Source of the DNA: Ostreococcus lucimarinus
Taxonomy: Eukaryota
NCBI GenBank assembly: GCA_000092065.1
Contig: CP000586.1
Strand: one strand, 5' to 3'
DNA length: 64,000 nucleotides
Positions 24,343-50,979 of this stretch are shown here, piece after piece. Numbering within the stretch: the stretch's first letter is position 1; every line of letters begins with the position of its first letter. Made by a program: the position numbers and the translations under genes. The notes below the pieces were generated by a model, which saw only the letters and a list, made by a program, of their open reading frames with translations, ran no database searches and had not been told where the DNA came from.

Positions 24343-26055
24343 ATGTCCAACGCGGCGGAAGATTTGTTGAAGATGGACTCGCCGATCCGCGATCCGAGTC
24401 CCGAGGCCGACGCGTGGGCGCCGTCGGCGGAGGAGGAGAAGGCGAGCGAGAAGGCGAACGCGAACGCGAACGCGAACGCGAGACGGGAGACGACGCGAGA
24501 CGACGGCGCGAGACGCGATGAATCGCGGCGAGACGCGAGGACGGGTGTACGAGGCGATGGGCGACACGGGGGAGGACGCGGCGGGGGAGGACGCGGAAGG
24601 GGAGGAGACGACGGGGCGCGTCGGGACGACTCGCGAGGACCGCCGCCGGCGAGAGACGGACGGTACGGTCGCGGACCGCCGCCGAGAGATGGACGCGGGG
24701 ATCGATGGGGACCGCCGCCCGGGGATCGAGGCGCGCCGCCGCCGCCGGCGCGGGATGGATGGGGCGACGACAGGCGCGGGCCGCCGAGAGACTCGTGGGG
24801 ACCGCCGCCGCCGAGAGGTCCGCCGCCGTCGGGATATTACGACGATCGCGATAGGCGCGAGGATTCGTGGGGTCGCGGCGGCGTGCCGCGGCGACACGAT
24901 GACTACGGGCCTCCGCGTTCGGGGTACTACGACGATCGCGATCGGTACGACTCGAGAGGTCCGCCGCGTTCGGGGTATTACGACGACCGCGACAGGCGCG
25001 ACGACGGATACTATCGACGGTCGCCATCGCGCGGGCCTCCGCCGGGGCGCTACGACGACCGCGACCGCGATAGACGTGATGACCGTTACGATTCCCGTGG
25101 ACCACCGCCGCCGCGAGATGACGAGCCGGGGTACGTCATGAACACGAGAGGCAATAACGGTCTCGTCGTCGGGCCTCAAGGTTCGAACGTGAAACGCATC
25201 GAGGACGAGACAGGGGCGAGAGTAAAGTGCTTGAAAGATAAGACCACCGTGGAAATTTACGGCTCGCCCGAGGCCGTGCGCCGCGCGACGGACAAAATAA
25301 TCGATTTGCTCGAAGCGAAGAGTGGCGGCTCGCGAGATCGTCCTGGTGAAAAGCGTCGTCGCGACGACGACAGGTTCGGCGACGACAATAAACGCCCTAG
25401 GGGGGCGCAAAATGATTCACTTTTAGACTACCTTCGTTCATCCGCGGTTGAACTCGGGGTTTCGAAGGAGTTTCCGCCAGACTTCGTCGACGAATCAAAC
25501 GCGGACGAACAAGGTAACGTCGAGGAAACGGCGAGCATCACCAACTACGTCGGGCTCATCATCGGTAAGCAAGGTCGCATGCACTCTGAGATTCAACGCA
25601 TCGTGGACATCCCCATGACGATCAACAAGGAAGACGAGACCGTGACTTTCAAGGGACCGGCCGCGAACGTCGGGCGAGGTCTGGCGTTGATTCGCGAGGT
25701 GATTGAGTTGACGAACGCGGTGCGAGACGCTCGAAACGCGACTCGCGAACGCGACGACGTGGAAGAGACCATCTCCATCACCGGCAACGTAGGCGCCGTC
25801 GTGGGCAAACAGGGAAACACGGTGAAGCGCATCAAGTCACAGTTGCCCCGCTGCTTGTTCCAAGTTGATCGAAATTCTGAAACCGTCCTCGTTCGCGGCG
25901 CGCCGGAGATGGTCGAACTCGCGAAACGGCTGGTGAGCGAGGCGATTGAGAACGTCCAAGCGAGAGCGCGCGAACGTGGCGGTGACGTCGACGCGGATAT
26001 GGGCGGCGAAGCGCCGATGGAACAGGATCGCGACCTTCGCGAGCGGCTTGGATAA
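24343..26055 (+). CDS. KH-domain RNA-binding protein with an N-terminal RG/GPPP/YYDDRDR repeat region and three KH domains
   Basis: Three KH cores: VGPQGSNVKRIEDETGARV, IIGKQGRMHSEIQRIVDIPM, VVGKQGNTVKRIKSQL. The N-terminal low-complexity repeats include SGYYDDRDR three times and GPPPR units. Confidence 0.75.
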   Translation: MSNAAEDLLKMDSPIRDPSPEADAWAPSAEEEKASEKANANANANARRETTRDDGARRDESRRDARTGVRGDGRHGGGRGGGGRGRGGDDGARRDDSRGPPPARDGRYGRGPPPRDGRGDRWGPPPGDRGAPPPPARDGWGDDRRGPPRDSWGPPPPRGPPPSGYYDDRDRREDSWGRGGVPRRHDDYGPPRSGYYDDRDRYDSRGPPRSGYYDDRDRRDDGYYRRSPSRGPPPGRYDDRDRDRRDDRYDSRGPPPPRDDEPGYVMNTRGNNGLVVGPQGSNVKRIEDETGARVKCLKDKTTVEIYGSPEAVRRATDKIIDLLEAKSGGSRDRPGEKRRRDDDRFGDDNKRPRGAQNDSLLDYLRSSAVELGVSKEFPPDFVDESNADEQGNVEETASITNYVGLIIGKQGRMHSEIQRIVDIPMTINKEDETVTFKGPAANVGRGLALIREVIELTNAVRDARNATRERDDVEETISITGNVGAVVGKQGNTVKRIKSQLPRCLFQVDRNSETVLVRGAPEMVELAKRLVSEAIENVQARARERGGDVDADMGGEAPMEQDRDLRERLG

Positions 26056-26139
26056 ACAACAGAACTTACATTAGAGAGTCTTTCGTCGAGGAAATAACAA
26101 GAATATAACAACACGCACGCTCCGTCGGCGCGATTTCAA

Positions 26140-27006
26140 TCAAATATCAGGATAGTACTGATTGGCCGGAGTCGCGTAATGCGACTGCGCCGCAGACGCC
26201 TGGACCGCGGGCGCCGATTGCTGAAACATGATGACCGTATCGCGCTGCCCGCCGCGCCCTGGAACGTGAATTTGCGACGGCGCCGTCGGCTGCATCGCCA
26301 GAGGCGCCCGAGACGCCGGCGGATTTTCTTGGCACACCTCACCTCGTTGTTGCTGTCGCATCGTCAACTGACGCTGAATCGTCGCCTGTCGCTGAAACGG
26401 ATTAACAAACATCGCATGGCGCATGGAAACCTTCGAAGCCCTCGCGATCGCGAACACCCGACAAAACATCGCGCACGCGCCGAACGCCACCGAGAGCCCG
26501 ATCGGCATCGCGACTTCTTCAGCCGCGTCCTCCTTCCCAGACCCCCCACCTCGTTCAAACGTCACCTTCACGTTCGAATTACACATCGCATTACTCCCGA
26601 TTCCACCGATCGGCATCGTGCACTTTCCTCGCAAACACCGGCGTCCCCGCTCCGAAAACCGCTTCTCCCCGTCGCACTTCTCGGGATCGCTCCCATCGCA
26701 CGCCGCGCCCGCGCACGCCATCCCGCCCCCCACCGCCTGCGTCACGTCGCACGCCGTCGACGCGTGCTCGACGCCCGACGGATCGTCGCGCGCGACCCAC
26801 CGCACGGGGTCGTCGAACCCGCTCGGCACACGCGCTTCGTACTCGATCTTTTCGACGTCGTCGGCGCAGCACTCCCACGTCGCCTGCGGCGCCATCTGCG
26901 CGTGGTTCGTCGAGCCGTCCGCGACGCACGACGTCGCCGCCGCGCCGCGCCATCGCGCGAGCGCGACGAGCGCGACGAGCGCGACGAGTCGTCCGCGGCG
27001 TCCCAT
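26140..27006 (-). CDS. cysteine-rich type I membrane protein of unknown function (signal peptide, Cys-rich ectodomain, TM, Q/P-rich tail)
   Basis: Signal peptide LVALVALVALA. About 16 Cys in the ectodomain. TM helix IGLSVAFGACAMFCRVFAIA. The ORF-track start at 27018 is TTG. The first ATG is at 27006. Confidence 0.5.
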   Translation of the reverse strand: MGRRGRLVALVALVALARWRGAAATSCVADGSTNHAQMAPQATWECCADDVEKIEYEARVPSGFDDPVRWVARDDPSGVEHASTACDVTQAVGGGMACAGAACDGSDPEKCDGEKRFSERGRRCLRGKCTMPIGGIGSNAMCNSNVKVTFERGGGSGKEDAAEEVAMPIGLSVAFGACAMFCRVFAIARASKVSMRHAMFVNPFQRQATIQRQLTMRQQQRGEVCQENPPASRAPLAMQPTAPSQIHVPGRGGQRDTVIMFQQSAPAVQASAAQSHYATPANQYYPDI

Positions 27007-27029
27007 GATGCGACACAAAGCGTCGCGAA

Positions 27030-28418
27030 ATGTCGCCGCGCGTCGCGACGTCGACCCTGTCGTGGTGCAAGGCGTATTACTTCTGCAACAGCTTCGGCCT
27101 CGCGTGTTTGCTGCCGTTCTTGCCGCTGTTTTACGCGTCGTGGGGGCTCAGCAAGTCGCGCGTCGGATGGATGGGCGCGACGCGGCACTGCGTCGGCGCC
27201 GTCTTGACGCCGTGCTGGAACGCGCTCGCGGACGCGACGAAGGCGCACAACGCGGTGCACTTCGCGTGCATCGTCGCGCAGGCGCTGGCGTACTTCGCGC
27301 TGGCGCGCGCGAACCACGCGTGGCCGGGGATATGGTGGCGCGTCGTGTTGGCGGAGAGCGCGGCGTGCTGCGTCGGGTCGCTGGGCGATAACGCGACGTG
27401 CTTGATGGTGAAGCGATGGAATCTCGAGCGAGGCGTCGGAGAGGACGACGCGGGAGGGGCGTCGTACGGGAAACAGCGGCTCTGGGGGGCGGTGAGCTGG
27501 GGATTAGTCGCCGCGCCGACGATGGGCGTCATCATGAGCGTCGGCGGGCCGAGGGCGAGAGCGCGCGCGCCGTTCTCGGGATGGTTGATTTTTTTGCTCG
27601 TCTCCGCGATGATCTCGACGAGGTTGAGACACGATCCCGTGGTGAGCGAAAACGCGGACGCGGCGAAAAATGAGCACGAGATGGGTGAGGTCGCCGCGGA
27701 TGAAGTCGTCGGGACGAAGATGTCGCGAAGAATCGCGTCGGCGAACGACTTGCACGCGTCGCAAGATTCAATCGCCGTGCGGTTGTGGCGCGTCGTGCGA
27801 GACCCCGCGGTGGCGCTGCGATTCTTTTTGTTTCTCATGTCGGGCGCGTCGATGACGATCACGGATTTGTATTTGTTTTTATGGCTGGAAGATTTAGGAG
27901 GCACTCCCGCGACGATGGGCGCGGCGCTCTTTTGTACGTGCGTGTGCGAAGTCGCCGTCTTTTACAACGGCGCCAAGATCAAGAAGGCGCTCACGCTGGA
28001 TTGGTGCCTGGCCCTCGTGCCGTTTTGTTACTTCATCAGACAGTTTTACTACTGGCTTTTACCCGCGTTCGGCAATCCCTGGGCCGTTTTGCCGGTGCAA
28101 TTTTTACACGGCGTCACGTTTGGGTTGTACTGGAGCACGGCGAATGATTTCATCCAAGACATAAGTCCGTTCGGGTTGAGCGCGTCCATGACTGGGCTTT
28201 TCAGCGCCGTCAACTCCGCCGGAGGCTTCAGCGGCGCCGTGCTCGGCGGCATGGCGTACGACGCCTTCGGCGGCGGCGGTCTGTTCCTCGGCGTCGGTTT
28301 AATAAACTTGTGCCTGGGCGTGTTTTTCACCGCACTCAAGCTCAGGAGCGATCGCGCGAACGCCGTCGCGTACGTATTACTCGAGAGCGAATCGACCGAA
28401 GAAGCGAACGCCCTTTAG
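27030..28418 (+). CDS. major facilitator superfamily transporter (MFS_1_like / MFSD6-like)
   Basis: 12-TM topology with an MFS_1_like N-terminus (FGLACLLPFLPLFYASWGLSKSRVG). ATG at 27030. Confidence 0.7.
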   Translation: MSPRVATSTLSWCKAYYFCNSFGLACLLPFLPLFYASWGLSKSRVGWMGATRHCVGAVLTPCWNALADATKAHNAVHFACIVAQALAYFALARANHAWPGIWWRVVLAESAACCVGSLGDNATCLMVKRWNLERGVGEDDAGGASYGKQRLWGAVSWGLVAAPTMGVIMSVGGPRARARAPFSGWLIFLLVSAMISTRLRHDPVVSENADAAKNEHEMGEVAADEVVGTKMSRRIASANDLHASQDSIAVRLWRVVRDPAVALRFFLFLMSGASMTITDLYLFLWLEDLGGTPATMGAALFCTCVCEVAVFYNGAKIKKALTLDWCLALVPFCYFIRQFYYWLLPAFGNPWAVLPVQFLHGVTFGLYWSTANDFIQDISPFGLSASMTGLFSAVNSAGGFSGAVLGGMAYDAFGGGGLFLGVGLINLCLGVFFTALKLRSDRANAVAYVLLESESTEEANAL

Positions 28419-28695
28419 CTCTAGATCTTAGTTAGCTCTGTAGACATCGCTAGACGCTAGACCGTAGTCGACCGCTATGCGTACGAGCACACGTAGTGAA
28501 ACTGTCCCTCCACGCGAATGTCGAACGACGAATCGCCTTCGAAGGATTCGAGCGGCATGGCGCGAGGGCGCGTGTGCGGTCGGCGGCGCGTCGTCGGCGG
28601 CGTCGTCGGCGGTGGCGATCTCGGCGGCGCGCGGGCGACGCGCGGCGTCGTGAAGTGTGCTGGAAATGCGTAGTTTACAGAGTACAATCCGAGTG

Positions 28696-36034: not shown

Positions 36035-36994
36035 CTACGAACCGACGGTCGGGTAATGAGATTTATCGATGCAGAAGACGCGACGCGCGTTGCGCGCGCA
36101 CGCTTCGGCGACGACGTCCACGCCGACGCCGTGCGCGCAGGCGATGATTTGAGCGACGCACACGATGTGCGCTGGCTCGCAACGGTCCTTGATCAGAGCG
36201 CCCGCGAACCACTTTTCCTTCTTGACGGGTTTCGGCCACGAGAGCGGCGGCGCGACGGCGGCGAAACCGGCGTGCGTGGGCTTGATCCCGCACCACGGGG
36301 CGTCGGTTTCGAGAACGATTCGATCGAGTGGAATCGTCTTCACCACGTCGAGGTTTTCTTGGGTCTTGAGCGAGCAGCCGTTGAGACCTATGAGGAGATT
36401 TTCGCGCGCGAGCACCGCGGCGGCTTCGCGCGCGCCGCCGGTGAAAGAGTGCACGACTCCCGCGGTGAATCTGTGCGCGTTGCGATCGATAATCTCCAAG
36501 AAATCGTCGCACGCGGCGCGCATGTGCAAGAACAGCGGCAACGACGTCGCCTCGGCGAGGGCAAACTGTTTTTCAAACATTTCCTTTTGCGTCGCCGCGT
36601 CGCAAAACTCGAGCCTGTCGTAATCCAATCCCATCTCCCCGATCGCCACGATCGTCCCGCTCGCCTTACCGTCGAGCGCGACTCGCTTCAACTTTTCCAA
36701 GTGCGCGTCCGCGCCGTCGACGTCGTCCGCGAACGCGCCGCACCTCGTCGGGTGCACGCCGCACGTCGCGTACAGCCTCGGCGCCGCGCCATCCTCCCGC
36801 GTTTCCCTCGCCAGCGCCACCGCCTCGCGCGCTTCCTCGAGCGTGCCCGCGGTGACGATGATATCGCTCACCCCCGCCTCGCGCGCGCGTCGCAGCACGG
36901 CGCCCAAATCGTCCTCGTGCGCGCGTTTTCCGCGGTACACACCGCGAAACATCCCATCCGTCAAGTTCGCCCCGACGTCCACGTACGTCGCCAT
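36035..36994 (-). CDS. TATD: TatD-family metal-dependent DNase/hydrolase
   Basis: TatD N-terminus VDVGANLTDGMF, with conserved His/Glu/Asp motifs (HPTRCGAF, VAIGEMGLDY, LFLHMRAA, VVHSFTGG, LETDAPW). The ORF-track start at 37297 is TTG. The conserved core starts at the ATG near 36994. An upstream ATG at about 37075 would add a presequence. Confidence 0.8.
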   Translation of the reverse strand: MATYVDVGANLTDGMFRGVYRGKRAHEDDLGAVLRRAREAGVSDIIVTAGTLEEAREAVALARETREDGAAPRLYATCGVHPTRCGAFADDVDGADAHLEKLKRVALDGKASGTIVAIGEMGLDYDRLEFCDAATQKEMFEKQFALAEATSLPLFLHMRAACDDFLEIIDRNAHRFTAGVVHSFTGGAREAAAVLARENLLIGLNGCSLKTQENLDVVKTIPLDRIVLETDAPWCGIKPTHAGFAAVAPPLSWPKPVKKEKWFAGALIKDRCEPAHIVCVAQIIACAHGVGVDVVAEACARNARRVFCIDKSHYPTVGS

Positions 36995-37179
36995 GCCGCG
37001 CGGCGCGGCGCGCGCGCGACCTTCGCTCGCGCCCCCGCGCGCGCTCGCGCACGCGAACCGCGCGCACGCGCGCATGTGAAGCGCGGCGCGAGCGAGACCG
37101 TTACGCAGCACATCGCGACGCACCGACGTCGCGCCGCGTCGCGTCGCGCGTCGCGTCGCGTCGCGCGCGTCGAGGCGGC

Positions 37180-37905
37180 ATGCGCGCGATCGCGAGCCAC
37201 GCGCTCGGCGCGCGCGCGCGATGCGTGCGCGCGCGCGCGTCGCGCGAGGACGCGTTCGGTGACCGGAGACGCGATGCCACGTCATCAGCACATTCAAACG
37301 ATACGAAGAAACGACGCGCGCGCGACGACGCGCGACGCGCGACGACGGCGCCGACGGAGGTGCTGTCGCCGTACGTCGTGCTGAACGTGCCGCGGGACGC
37401 GACGACGACGGAGCTGAAGATTGCGTTTCGAAAGATGGCCAAGGCGACGCATCCGGATTCGAGCGGCGACGCGGACGCGAGCGGGACGGCGTTTCGACGC
37501 GCGCACGCCGCGTATGAGGTGCTCACGGATGACGTGCGAAGAAGCATGATCGACGATGGAATCGTGGATACGTGTCATGGGTTCTCGTTCGTCGAGGGAG
37601 AGATTCGCACGTCGTTGGATTACGCGAAGCGCTCGGGGGCGCCTTTGAAAAAGTCAACCGCCGCGGCGCGCGAGCGTCGACGTCGACGGAAGAAGACGAA
37701 AGTCAAAGCGAGCGCGTGGGAGGAAAAGGTGATGTTTTCGCCGAAGAATCGAGACGAGCTCGTGAAAAAGTGGCACCTCGAGCGATGGAATCGCGGATGG
37801 CGGATGTGGTGCCAGGCGTGGTTCGCGCTTCTGACTTTCGGCGCGCCCGTCGGCGTCGCCTACGCGCTCGCGTTCGCCCATCAATTCGCGATCGCGCCGC
37901 ACTGA
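37180..37905 (+). CDS. DnaJ (J-domain) protein with a C-terminal TM helix
   Basis: J-domain YVVLNVPRDATTTELKIAFRKMAKATHPD. C-terminal hydrophobic WCQAWFALLTFGAPVGVAYALAFA. ATG at 37180. Confidence 0.7.
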   Translation: MRAIASHALGARARCVRARASREDAFGDRRRDATSSAHSNDTKKRRARDDARRATTAPTEVLSPYVVLNVPRDATTTELKIAFRKMAKATHPDSSGDADASGTAFRRAHAAYEVLTDDVRRSMIDDGIVDTCHGFSFVEGEIRTSLDYAKRSGAPLKKSTAAARERRRRRKKTKVKASAWEEKVMFSPKNRDELVKKWHLERWNRGWRMWCQAWFALLTFGAPVGVAYALAFAHQFAIAPH

Positions 37906-48482: not shown

Positions 48483-49073
48483 TCACTCGCGATTCGGCAG
48501 CGACGACTGATTTTGCCACGACTCCATCCGACTCGCCGTGACGAGATTCGTCAACAATTTTATCCTATCCGCCCTATTCGCCGCGTGCGCCTCCGTCAGC
48601 GCCGCCACTCTCGCCGCCATCTTCCCTCTCGCTCGTTCATACGCCCTCCTCAGATCGTCGTCGCCGTCCTCTCCCTCTCCCTCGCCTTCCTCGTTCGCGT
48701 CGCCGTCGCTCACCAGCGCGCGCGCCAACGCCTCCACCGCCGCGCTCGTCTCGTCCGTCGCCAGCGACTCCAACAGATCCCTGTCGCACGTCATCGCCAC
48801 CGGCGTCGCCAGCGCGTCGATCAGGCGAAAGTCTTCCTCGCACTGCGCCTCGCTCGTCGCCAGCGCGTCCTCGAGCGCGCGCGCGCACGCCGCGAGCGTC
48901 GCGTCGTCCGGTCGGTCGAGCGGTCGAATCGTCGTCGCGCGCGGCGGCGACGACGCGCGCTCGCGCGGCGGCGACGCCGGCGCGTGCGCGCGACCGTCCA
49001 TCGCGCCGGCGCGTCGGCGCGCGCGTCGGTGCGGCGCGACGCGCGTCGTCCGTCGAATTCGGCAATTCGGCAT
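48483..49073 (-). CDS. small acidic hypothetical protein (weak)
   Basis: 196-aa ORF in the 680-bp gap between XRN and the threonine-synthase-like gene. Non-repetitive acidic sequence with helical segments. The plus-strand ORFs here are R-rich junk or a non-ATG extension. Confidence 0.3.
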   Translation of the reverse strand: MPNCRIRRTTRVAPHRRARRRAGAMDGRAHAPASPPRERASSPPRATTIRPLDRPDDATLAACARALEDALATSEAQCEEDFRLIDALATPVAMTCDRDLLESLATDETSAAVEALARALVSDGDANEEGEGEGEDGDDDLRRAYERARGKMAARVAALTEAHAANRADRIKLLTNLVTASRMESWQNQSSLPNRE

Positions 49074-49098
49074 TCGGCGCGCGCGTCACACGGCGGCG

Positions 49099-50979
49099 AT
49101 GAAGTACGTGAGCACGCGCGGCGGCGCGCCGCCGACGACGTTCGTCGACGCCCTGCTCACGGGCTCGCCGCTGGACGGCGGCGCGTACGTCCCGGAGCGC
49201 GTCCCGACGATCGATTTCAAAAAGATTTTAAATTCGAGCTACGAGACGCTGTGCGTGGAAATCCTGTCGGTGTTTTGCGCGAATGGCGAGGAGTTCACGA
49301 AGGAAACGCTGCGAGAGATCGCGCACGAGGCGTGTAAGACGTTCGCGGACGACGCGATCGCGCCGGTGAAGACGCTCGGGCGAAGAGGCGCGAGAGGATG
49401 GGTGCACGCGTGCGAATTGCATCGCGGACCGACGCTGAGCGCGGAGGACGCGAGCATGCAGATGGCGGTGCGGATGATGGATCGGGCGTTGAAACTACGT
49501 GGGAAGCGAGGAAATGTGATGTGCTCGACGACGGGGGAAGAGGGGGGGGCGTTCGCGCGCGTGGCGGCGGAGATGAAGAATATGGACGCGTGGATCGTGT
49601 ACCCGGGCGACGACGGCGACGTGACCGAGCCTCAGGAACGAGAGATGACGTGTCACGTGGAGGATCACGTGCATCCGGTTAAGGTGAGCGAATGCCCGGA
49701 TGGAATGAGCGATGTGGACGCGGTCGTGATCGATGTGCTGAACGATGAGGCGTTTCGGTTGGCGAACGGGATGGTGAGCGCGAATAGCGCCAACGTGGCG
49801 CGCGTGTTGTGCTTTGTGCCGTTATTTTTTCACGCCTACGGACAAGTGCGCGCGAAGCGCGAAGAGTGGGGGAGACCCGTGGTGTTCAGTATACCGAGCT
49901 CCACGTTCGCGCTGGAGTACGCCGGTCACCTGGCGCGTTTGATGGGGTTGCCGATCACCGTCGTCGCCGCGTGCAACGCCAACGGCGCGGCGCACCGCGC
50001 CATCTCGCTCGGTGAATTGTACAAGACTGATATGGTGCACACGTCGTCGAGCGCGTTGGATGTCGTCGTGGCTGAAAACATGTGGCGGTCGCTGTACTAC
50101 GCCACTGGATCAAATCCGCTGATTTTGAGCGAGCTGCAAGACGATTTCGACGAAGACGGCGAAGTTGAATTGCCACCGAAGATGACGAGTGAGTTAAACG
50201 CCGTGTTCAAGAGCGCGGTCGTGAGCGACGAACTCATGTATAGCACGATACAGCGCGAGGAGCGCATGGGGTACTTACCCTGTCCTCAAACTGCGATCGC
50301 GATCGCGGCGCTGGAGTTGGTCGAGGACATCGCCGAGGACGTTCCGTGTGTGGCGCTCGCGGTGTCGCATCCGAGCAAGTTTCCGACCGTTATCCGTCGC
50401 GCGGTGCCGCAACTGAGCAACGGAGCTTCACATCCTACTGTGGATGGTATGAAGGGCTTGTTCCACCGCCGTCGCACGTGCTCGCTCGAAGAGCTCGAAC
50501 GCTCGTTGCGCAGAGACATCTCAGCGGTGACTTCGCTGCGCTCGCCCGCTCCGGTTAAGATCGAGCGCGTCTTACTCGCGCGCGACGAGTACGAGAAGAT
50601 TTACATGACCACCGTGATCAAGCGCAAACGATGGCGAGGTTTCGACAGTCCACTGTTCACCATCGCCTGCGCCGTCGCGGTCGCCGCGTGGGCCGCCGTC
50701 ACCACGCCGGAGACGAACCGGCAAACCGGGTCCGCGCGCGCCGCCGCGCGCGCCGCCGCCAAAGCGCGACGCGCCGCCGCCAAAGCGAGCGGCGAAAAAG
50801 CGCGAGCATTAGCCAGGACTCAGCGCCAAGCCGCGCGCGACGCCGCCAAGCTCGCCAAAATCCAAGCCGAGTCGGCGCGCGAATCCGCGCGTCCTCGCGT
50901 CTACGCGCGCGACCGCCGCGCGGCGCGTCCACCCAACGAGCACTTCGCGCACCAACCCCATAGAAACATTTATGCTTAA
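49099..50979 (+). CDS. threonine synthase-like PLP enzyme (THR4/THNSL family), with an atypical K/A/R-rich C-terminal tail
   Basis: The N-terminus MKYVSTRGGAP...LDGGAYVP matches the threonine-synthase N-terminal motif (YRSTRS...ATDGGLFIP in yeast THR4). PLP-fold core. The last ~90 aa (AARAAAKARRAAAKASG...) are low-complexity, so an unrecognised intron or an earlier stop is possible. Confidence 0.65.
   Translation: MKYVSTRGGAPPTTFVDALLTGSPLDGGAYVPERVPTIDFKKILNSSYETLCVEILSVFCANGEEFTKETLREIAHEACKTFADDAIAPVKTLGRRGARGWVHACELHRGPTLSAEDASMQMAVRMMDRALKLRGKRGNVMCSTTGEEGGAFARVAAEMKNMDAWIVYPGDDGDVTEPQEREMTCHVEDHVHPVKVSECPDGMSDVDAVVIDVLNDEAFRLANGMVSANSANVARVLCFVPLFFHAYGQVRAKREEWGRPVVFSIPSSTFALEYAGHLARLMGLPITVVAACNANGAAHRAISLGELYKTDMVHTSSSALDVVVAENMWRSLYYATGSNPLILSELQDDFDEDGEVELPPKMTSELNAVFKSAVVSDELMYSTIQREERMGYLPCPQTAIAIAALELVEDIAEDVPCVALAVSHPSKFPTVIRRAVPQLSNGASHPTVDGMKGLFHRRRTCSLEELERSLRRDISAVTSLRSPAPVKIERVLLARDEYEKIYMTTVIKRKRWRGFDSPLFTIACAVAVAAWAAVTTPETNRQTGSARAAARAAAKARRAAAKASGEKARALARTQRQAARDAAKLAKIQAESARESARPRVYARDRRAARPPNEHFAHQPHRNIYA

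Follow-up and report, generated by a model that had tools for sequence, protein, structure and literature searches.

Introduction

Microsporidia and nucleomorphs have intergenic spacers of tens of bases, which put promoters and transcription start sites (TSSs) inside upstream genes. In metazoans, a bidirectional promoter is a short shared region that drives two divergent genes, some of which overlap at their 5′ ends; such promoters are defined by a TSS-to-TSS distance of less than 1 kb and usually consist of hundreds of base pairs of non-coding CpG-island DNA. Here we describe a divergent gene pair of Ostreococcus lucimarinus, located in a stretch of 64,000 nucleotides of contig CP000586.1 (assembly GCA_000092065.1; hereafter the window), in which a gene for a cysteine-rich (Cys-rich) membrane protein and a gene for a major facilitator superfamily (MFS) transporter stand head-to-head with start codons 23 bp apart. 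Compared with metazoan bidirectional promoters, this pair is essentially without non-coding promoter DNA. Microsporidia and nucleomorphs are parasites or endosymbiont remnants whose genes are often found on multigene transcripts, whereas Ostreococcus is free-living, and no multigene transcript is implied for the present locus.

The closest described systems are found in Ostreococcus itself and in its relatives. Intergenic regions in Ostreococcus average less than 200 bp (PMC2850359). In O. tauri, 2288 bidirectional transcript pairs comprise about half of the transcripts (PMC4035068), and overlapping untranslated regions (UTRs) are so common that neighbouring genes become fused in RNA-seq assemblies (PMC4378021). 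The present pair resembles these bidirectional pairs and overlapping UTRs in the crowding of neighbours; however, those reports are genome-wide and do not describe this pair, the Cys-rich partner is missing from the O. tauri locus, and 23 bp is far below the usual spacing. In Micromonas, convergent overlapping pairs (COPs), in which the UTRs of neighbouring genes overlap at their 3′ ends, have been reported, and reciprocal regulation has been proposed for them (PMC4815162). Like the present pair, COPs involve adjacent protein-coding genes in related Mamiellophyceae, but they are arranged tail-to-tail in a low-GC region, whereas the present pair is head-to-head and lies in ordinary high-GC sequence. 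In the literature, we found nothing specific on the mapping of TSSs or 5′ UTRs in Ostreococcus.

Results

The original prediction had placed two head-to-head start codons 23 bp apart, and direct reading of the sequence confirmed these coordinates. The plus-strand letters are 'cat' at 27004–27006, corresponding to the minus-strand ATG (27006–27004), and 'atg' at 27030–27032, leaving a spacer of 23 bp between them (27007–27029, GATGCGACACAAAGCGTCGCGAA). The Cys-rich open reading frame (ORF; 26140–27006, minus strand) and the MFS ORF (27030–28418, plus strand) are adjacent, lie on opposite strands and have their 5′ ends facing each other, as in a bidirectional pair. GC content at the third codon position (GC3) was of the coding type in both (0.77 for the Cys-rich ORF and 0.82 for the MFS ORF), with second-position values (GC2) of 0.55 and 0.50, respectively. 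Together with the conserved orthologues described below, these values indicate that both ORFs are real genes and not chance ORFs of GC-rich DNA. The spacer was identical in 12 of 12 metagenome contigs of O. lucimarinus, although these contigs were chosen by exact protein identity and are not independent of one another. O. lucimarinus is plentiful in marine metagenomes, and the two proteins were found in 201 and 332 contig-index blocks. Two other proteins encoded in the window, threonine synthase (ThrS) and ATG3, are exact matches to XP_001418305.1 and XP_001418543.1 of O. lucimarinus CCE9901, which bears out the earlier assignment to the Mamiellophyceae.

The plus-strand gene encodes a protein of 462 amino acids beginning MSPRVATSTLSWCKAYYF, which matched the Pfam family MFS_1_like (PF12832; MFSD6-like) at 162 bits, against a gathering cut-off of 25.2, with residues 12–419 aligned to positions 3–371 of the 373-position profile. 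This near-full-length match above threshold places the protein in the MFS_1_like family of transporters and leaves only 11 residues ahead of the domain. An in-frame TGA, read directly from the sequence (27006–27008, plus strand), lies 8 codons 5′ of the ATG at 27030, and therefore an unspliced N-terminal extension is excluded. In an alignment of 18 orthologues, M1, L10 and K14 were invariant, and the first transmembrane (TM) helix, TM1 (LACLLPFLPLFY), precedes the next methionine, M48. Furthermore, orthologues that had not been over-extended by prokaryotic gene callers begin approximately 9–13 residues before L10, and the curated O. tauri orthologue, XP_003080018.1, begins at the ATG equivalent to 27030. 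The domain starting from residue 12, the upstream TGA, the position of L10, K14 and TM1 before M48, and the O. tauri model together indicate that ATG 27030 is the MFS start, barring an unseen upstream exon.

The minus-strand gene encodes an Ostreococcus-restricted protein of 288 amino acids beginning MGRRGRLVALVALVALARW, for which no Pfam family was matched and only 4 database relatives, all without names, were found; synteny revealed further orthologues in the lineages L014, L023 and L017. The protein consists of a signal-like N-terminus, an ectodomain with 10 cysteines, one TM helix (approximately residues 165–188) and a conserved cytosolic tail ending in YYPDI. Codons 1–24 (26935–27006, minus strand) would encode a signal peptide with the n-region MGRRGR, the h-core LVALVALVALA and the c-region RWRGAAA, and the Kyte–Doolittle mean over 11 residues reached 3.18 across residues 5–18. 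A single TM segment was located at approximately residues 164–189 by hydropathy with a 19-residue window. On hydropathy, the protein therefore has the pattern of a type I membrane protein with a predicted signal peptide, with n-, h- and c-regions and one internal TM helix. The (LVA)n signal core is encoded by a 9-bp tandem repeat in four copies (CGCGACGAG; 26954–26988, not assigned to a strand; TRF score 63, 96% matches). No copy-number variants of this repeat were seen among the cluster members listed, of which the full-length ones are all 288 amino acids long. The string GCGCGACGAGCGCGACGAGCGC is common to the window and to the distant orthologue in L014, where it encodes IALVALVALA.

Five-way alignment of the Cys-rich proteins revealed nine invariant cysteines, a DP..W motif, the single TM helix, and a tail with IPG..G.RDT and a terminal YYP(D/S)(I/V). 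The conserved blocks of the window gene and of its sister lineage (L026/L045) vary mainly at synonymous sites; over codons 181–200, for example, all 20 residues are identical while 7 synonymous differences have accumulated. The orthologue in L017 carries a 99-nt GT..AG intron (L017:3669–3767) after a first exon of 219 nt, and its removal restores the reading frame; the window gene is without an intron. The invariant cysteines, the conservation of the TM helix and tail, the predominance of synonymous change and the frame-preserving intron of L017 indicate that the Cys-rich ORF is a genuine lineage-restricted gene. On one of the two sister-lineage contigs, the last ~65 residues of the Cys-rich protein (P0071, L045:3001–3882) are frameshifted relative to those of P0070 (L026), which reflects strain variation or else a fault in the assembly.

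The start codon of the Cys-rich gene (27004–27006, minus strand) lies in the context cgcATCATGG, with A at −3 and G at +4, and is the sole in-frame ATG 5′ of the invariant Cys27. A basic stretch followed by a hydrophobic one precedes this first invariant cysteine in all four Cys-rich orthologues, and the next methionine, M38, is replaced by isoleucine in the sister lineage. With the N-terminus kept in five lineages, Cys27 invariant, M38 not conserved and no other upstream ATG, the assignment of ATG 27006 as the start is well supported. Comparison of orthologous N-termini in relatives thus upheld both start codons, in agreement with the earlier view that both N-termini are genuine.

We then compared the locus among Ostreococcus lineages. 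The gene order LepA, KH, [Cys-rich(−)], MFS(+), [PpnP(−)], ATG3(−), PurL(+), with bracketed genes not always present, was common to all Ostreococcus-like lineages recovered, and the head-to-head orientation was kept in the five that carry the Cys-rich gene. The ATG-to-ATG spacer measured 23 bp in O. lucimarinus CCE9901 (the window), 37 bp in the sister lineage (L026 and L045, two independent assemblies; 90% MFS identity to the window), 80 bp in L014 (~65–67% identity), 108 bp in L023 (~59–61% identity; 177 bp with the second Met) and 146 bp in L017 (~56–57% identity). The Cys-rich gene is missing from the locus in O. tauri (L022:3926–4001), and likewise at the syntenic locus of L024 (3790–4001). 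Because the KH stop codon is just 74 bp from the MFS ATG in O. tauri, the MFS promoter there would have to share sequence with the KH gene at its 3′ end. The 23–146 bp range and the losses in O. tauri and L024 indicate that the orientation is conserved wherever the Cys-rich gene is present, yet the spacer is labile in length and the partner gene dispensable. The architecture had been described as obligatory, which these observations make doubtful.

Within the window, about 10 divergent junctions were counted from first-ATG ORFs, and the 23-bp junction is the tightest. After inspection, the others ranged from ~97 to 668 bp, the next supported one being ~97 bp. Three further first-ATG pairs had seemed equally tight or overlapping, namely those of ThrS (25 bp), an aprataxin-like gene (32 bp) and TatD/DnaJ (a 106-bp overlap), and each was rejected. 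For the ThrS pair (48999–49099), the neighbour's ATG at 49073, in frame in the window, is in close strains out of frame with the conserved ORF, which starts at M25 (49001), ~97 bp from the ThrS ATG; in the window strain, ATG 49073 therefore acts as an upstream AUG or as an N-terminal extension. For the head-to-head overlap of TatD (36994–37285, minus strand) and DnaJ (37180, plus strand), the TatD Pfam domain begins only at residue 124, and TatD almost certainly starts at M98 (36994), a typical TatD N-terminus, leaving 185 bp. For the aprataxin-like pair, the first ~55–80 residues have no homologue coverage, and the reference model is 207 amino acids long.

The spacers themselves share only a short CAAA(G/A)CG...GCGAA stretch, and this in the two closest lineages alone. 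The window contained no excess of a recurrent spacer motif (2 matches at ≤3 mismatches, against 1.3 expected by chance), and no Rfam covariance model matched at E ≤ 1 across 26000–28600. A GCGAC...GTCGC inverted repeat in the spacer was given no weight, as it is made of the genome's commonest words. Upstream of the MFS start, two out-of-frame ATGs (27005–27010, plus strand), at −25 and −22 from the MFS ATG, open an ORF of 127–128 codons that overlaps the MFS start; they arise because the start context of the Cys-rich gene, CATGATG, creates them. These upstream ATGs are present in L017 and L023 and absent from the sister lineage and L014, which indicates that they are not a conserved feature. 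On the Cys-rich strand, the 265 nt upstream of its ATG contain no ATG. The consensus of the translation initiator of short 5′ UTR (TISU; SAASATGGCGGC), relevant to translation from leaders of approximately 20 nt or shorter, was found at neither ATG, with several mismatches each at the Cys-rich site (CATCATGGGACG) and the MFS site (CGAAATGTCGCC).

On the far side of the Cys-rich gene lies a convergent gene for a KH-domain protein (24343–26055, plus strand), identified by its ORF and a domain match. The KH and Cys-rich stop codons are 84 bp apart (26055–26140), and therefore the 3′ UTRs and terminators are crowded as well. Between MFS and ATG3, we found the remnant of a PpnP-like gene (28419–28695, minus strand) with an internal deletion of ~237 bp in the window, which represents the reference strain. 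An intact copy (L003:6446–6766) encodes 106 amino acids and matches PF06865 (E = 6.5e-28), and the gene is also intact in the O. lucimarinus contigs L004, L006, L007 and L008 and in the sister-lineage contig L045. In L005 it carries a different deletion, of ~216 bp, and in L001 its middle segment is inverted and shortened. Since the disruptions in the window, L005 and L001 differ, the PpnP-like gene has several independent disruption alleles.

Discussion

Given two start codons separated by 23 bp, it follows logically that control sequences, leaders or both would almost certainly fall within coding sequence of the neighbour. As 23 bp has no room for a pair of core promoters plus ordinary leaders for both genes, we consider it likely that the promoter elements of each gene sit within its partner's coding sequence, with at least partial overlap of the 5′ ends of the transcripts. 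In the mechanism we propose, the promoter elements of each gene would be placed inside the partner's 5′ coding sequence, and one or both mRNAs, with the Cys-rich one as the easiest candidate, most probably begin within the neighbour's coding sequence, which would give 5′-overlapping antisense transcripts. If the Cys-rich leader extended antisense across part of the MFS coding sequence, there would be no translational cost, because the 265 nt upstream of the Cys-rich ATG are without an ATG. The MFS mRNA, because of the out-of-frame ATGs at −25 and −22, would either start within the spacer (leader of at most 21 nt) or depend on leaky scanning.

Several observations weigh against this reading. 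The mRNA start sites of both genes are entirely inferred from sequence. If the MFS mRNA started within the coding sequence of the Cys-rich gene, it would contain two upstream AUGs and their 127–128-codon ORF across the MFS start; such AUGs would be costly under scanning, which argues for short leaders rather than a long overlap. A scarcity of antisense ATGs in the coding sequence of the partner, which might have been taken as a trace of long leaders, has no discriminating power, as the first 300 nt are free of them in 15 of 34 genes. Furthermore, none of the cluster members listed ties the exact Cys-rich or MFS product to an nr/UniRef accession of O. lucimarinus, whereas ATG3 and ThrS do have one; for this reason the reference annotation may model the two genes differently or omit them.

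Alternatively, both mRNAs could start inside the spacer, with ultra-short leaders totalling at most 23 nt and no overlap, so that only the promoters would be embedded. This would require initiation that tolerates very short leaders, and although an MFS TSS 3′ of 27008 would escape the out-of-frame ATGs and the Cys-rich ATG lies in a strong context, scanning initiation in most eukaryotes works poorly when the leader has only a few nucleotides, and neither start matches TISU. The orthologous pairs have spacers of 37–146 bp, and the upstream ATGs of L017 and L023 suggest that avoiding them is no general rule at this locus. Moreover, data from O. tauri favour overlapping over short UTRs (PMC4378021). 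We therefore regard two ultra-short leaders as rather unlikely.

Three further explanations, a mis-assigned start, a spliced leader and a non-expressed ORF, are improbable even when taken jointly. If one start codon were wrong, with initiation at a downstream methionine (MFS M48; Cys-rich M38 or M96) or at a non-AUG codon, the 5′ ends would lie further apart. First-ATG calls are often over-extended in this GC-rich genome, as the dissolution of the ThrS-neighbour, TatD and aprataxin-like pairs illustrates, and the exact products are seemingly not in the reference annotation. However, MFS residues 10–47 include TM1 of the Pfam domain as well as invariant positions, and Cys-rich residues 18–37, including Cys27, are conserved, with M38 being isoleucine in the sister lineage, which makes a wrong start very unlikely; even on the least favourable assumption, only ~125 bp would separate the conserved stretches of the two genes. 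The original prediction had offered a spliced 5′ leader as its own alternative. With such a leader or a 5′-UTR intron, a non-coding first exon and the promoter would be located far upstream, beyond or inside the neighbour. We found no supporting evidence for it: the MFS strand of the spacer does contain an AG (ACAAAG, 27015–27020), and the L017 Cys-rich orthologue does have an intron, though a coding one, but no comparison suggests a donor/acceptor pair or an upstream exon, the minus-strand spacer is without an AG, and introns are sparse in these genomes. The TSS would also sit deeper in the neighbour, and the overlap would not be removed. We give a spliced leader very little credence. That the Cys-rich ORF is not expressed, being either an antisense ORF that arose by chance or a pseudogene in decay, and that there is hence no true pair, is scarcely credible. 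The missing Pfam family, the 4 database relatives, the absence of the gene from O. tauri and L024 and the C-terminal frameshift variant P0071 would fit such a view, but they stand against the conservation of cysteines, TM helix and tail in five lineages, the synonymous-dominated change, the frame-preserving L017 intron and the presence of the exact protein in 332 metagenome-index blocks.

Returning to embedded promoters with partly overlapping transcripts, we infer that the arrangement came about through genome compaction in this lineage and is no purpose-built regulatory device, because the spacer varies from 146 to 23 bp over five lineages and shows neither a conserved nor a recurrent element, and because O. 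tauri has lost the partner altogether. The description of the arrangement as unusual was overstated, since UTR overlap and bidirectional pairs are common in Ostreococcus (PMC4378021, PMC4035068). We judge the pair to be an extreme but expected case of the known crowding and transcript overlap in Ostreococcus, and not a new type of arrangement. A more speculative view starts from the fact that 23 bp forces either mRNAs with complementary 5′ ends or leaders of a few nucleotides: the pair might act as a built-in toggle, in which transcription of one gene interferes with initiation of the other, or might use an unusual scanning-independent initiation. We consider this improbable; if it were true, the pair would also be a minimal bidirectional promoter made wholly of coding sequence.

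As a case of known crowding, the pair leaves the existing understanding of these compact genomes unchanged. For annotators, it is a caution that promoters would be located within coding sequence here. It may also help in designing minimal bidirectional promoters with which to engineer Ostreococcus. Finally, with relatives at 37, 80, 108 and 146 bp, the locus would provide a natural test case for the minimum of non-coding DNA that a eukaryotic divergent gene pair needs.

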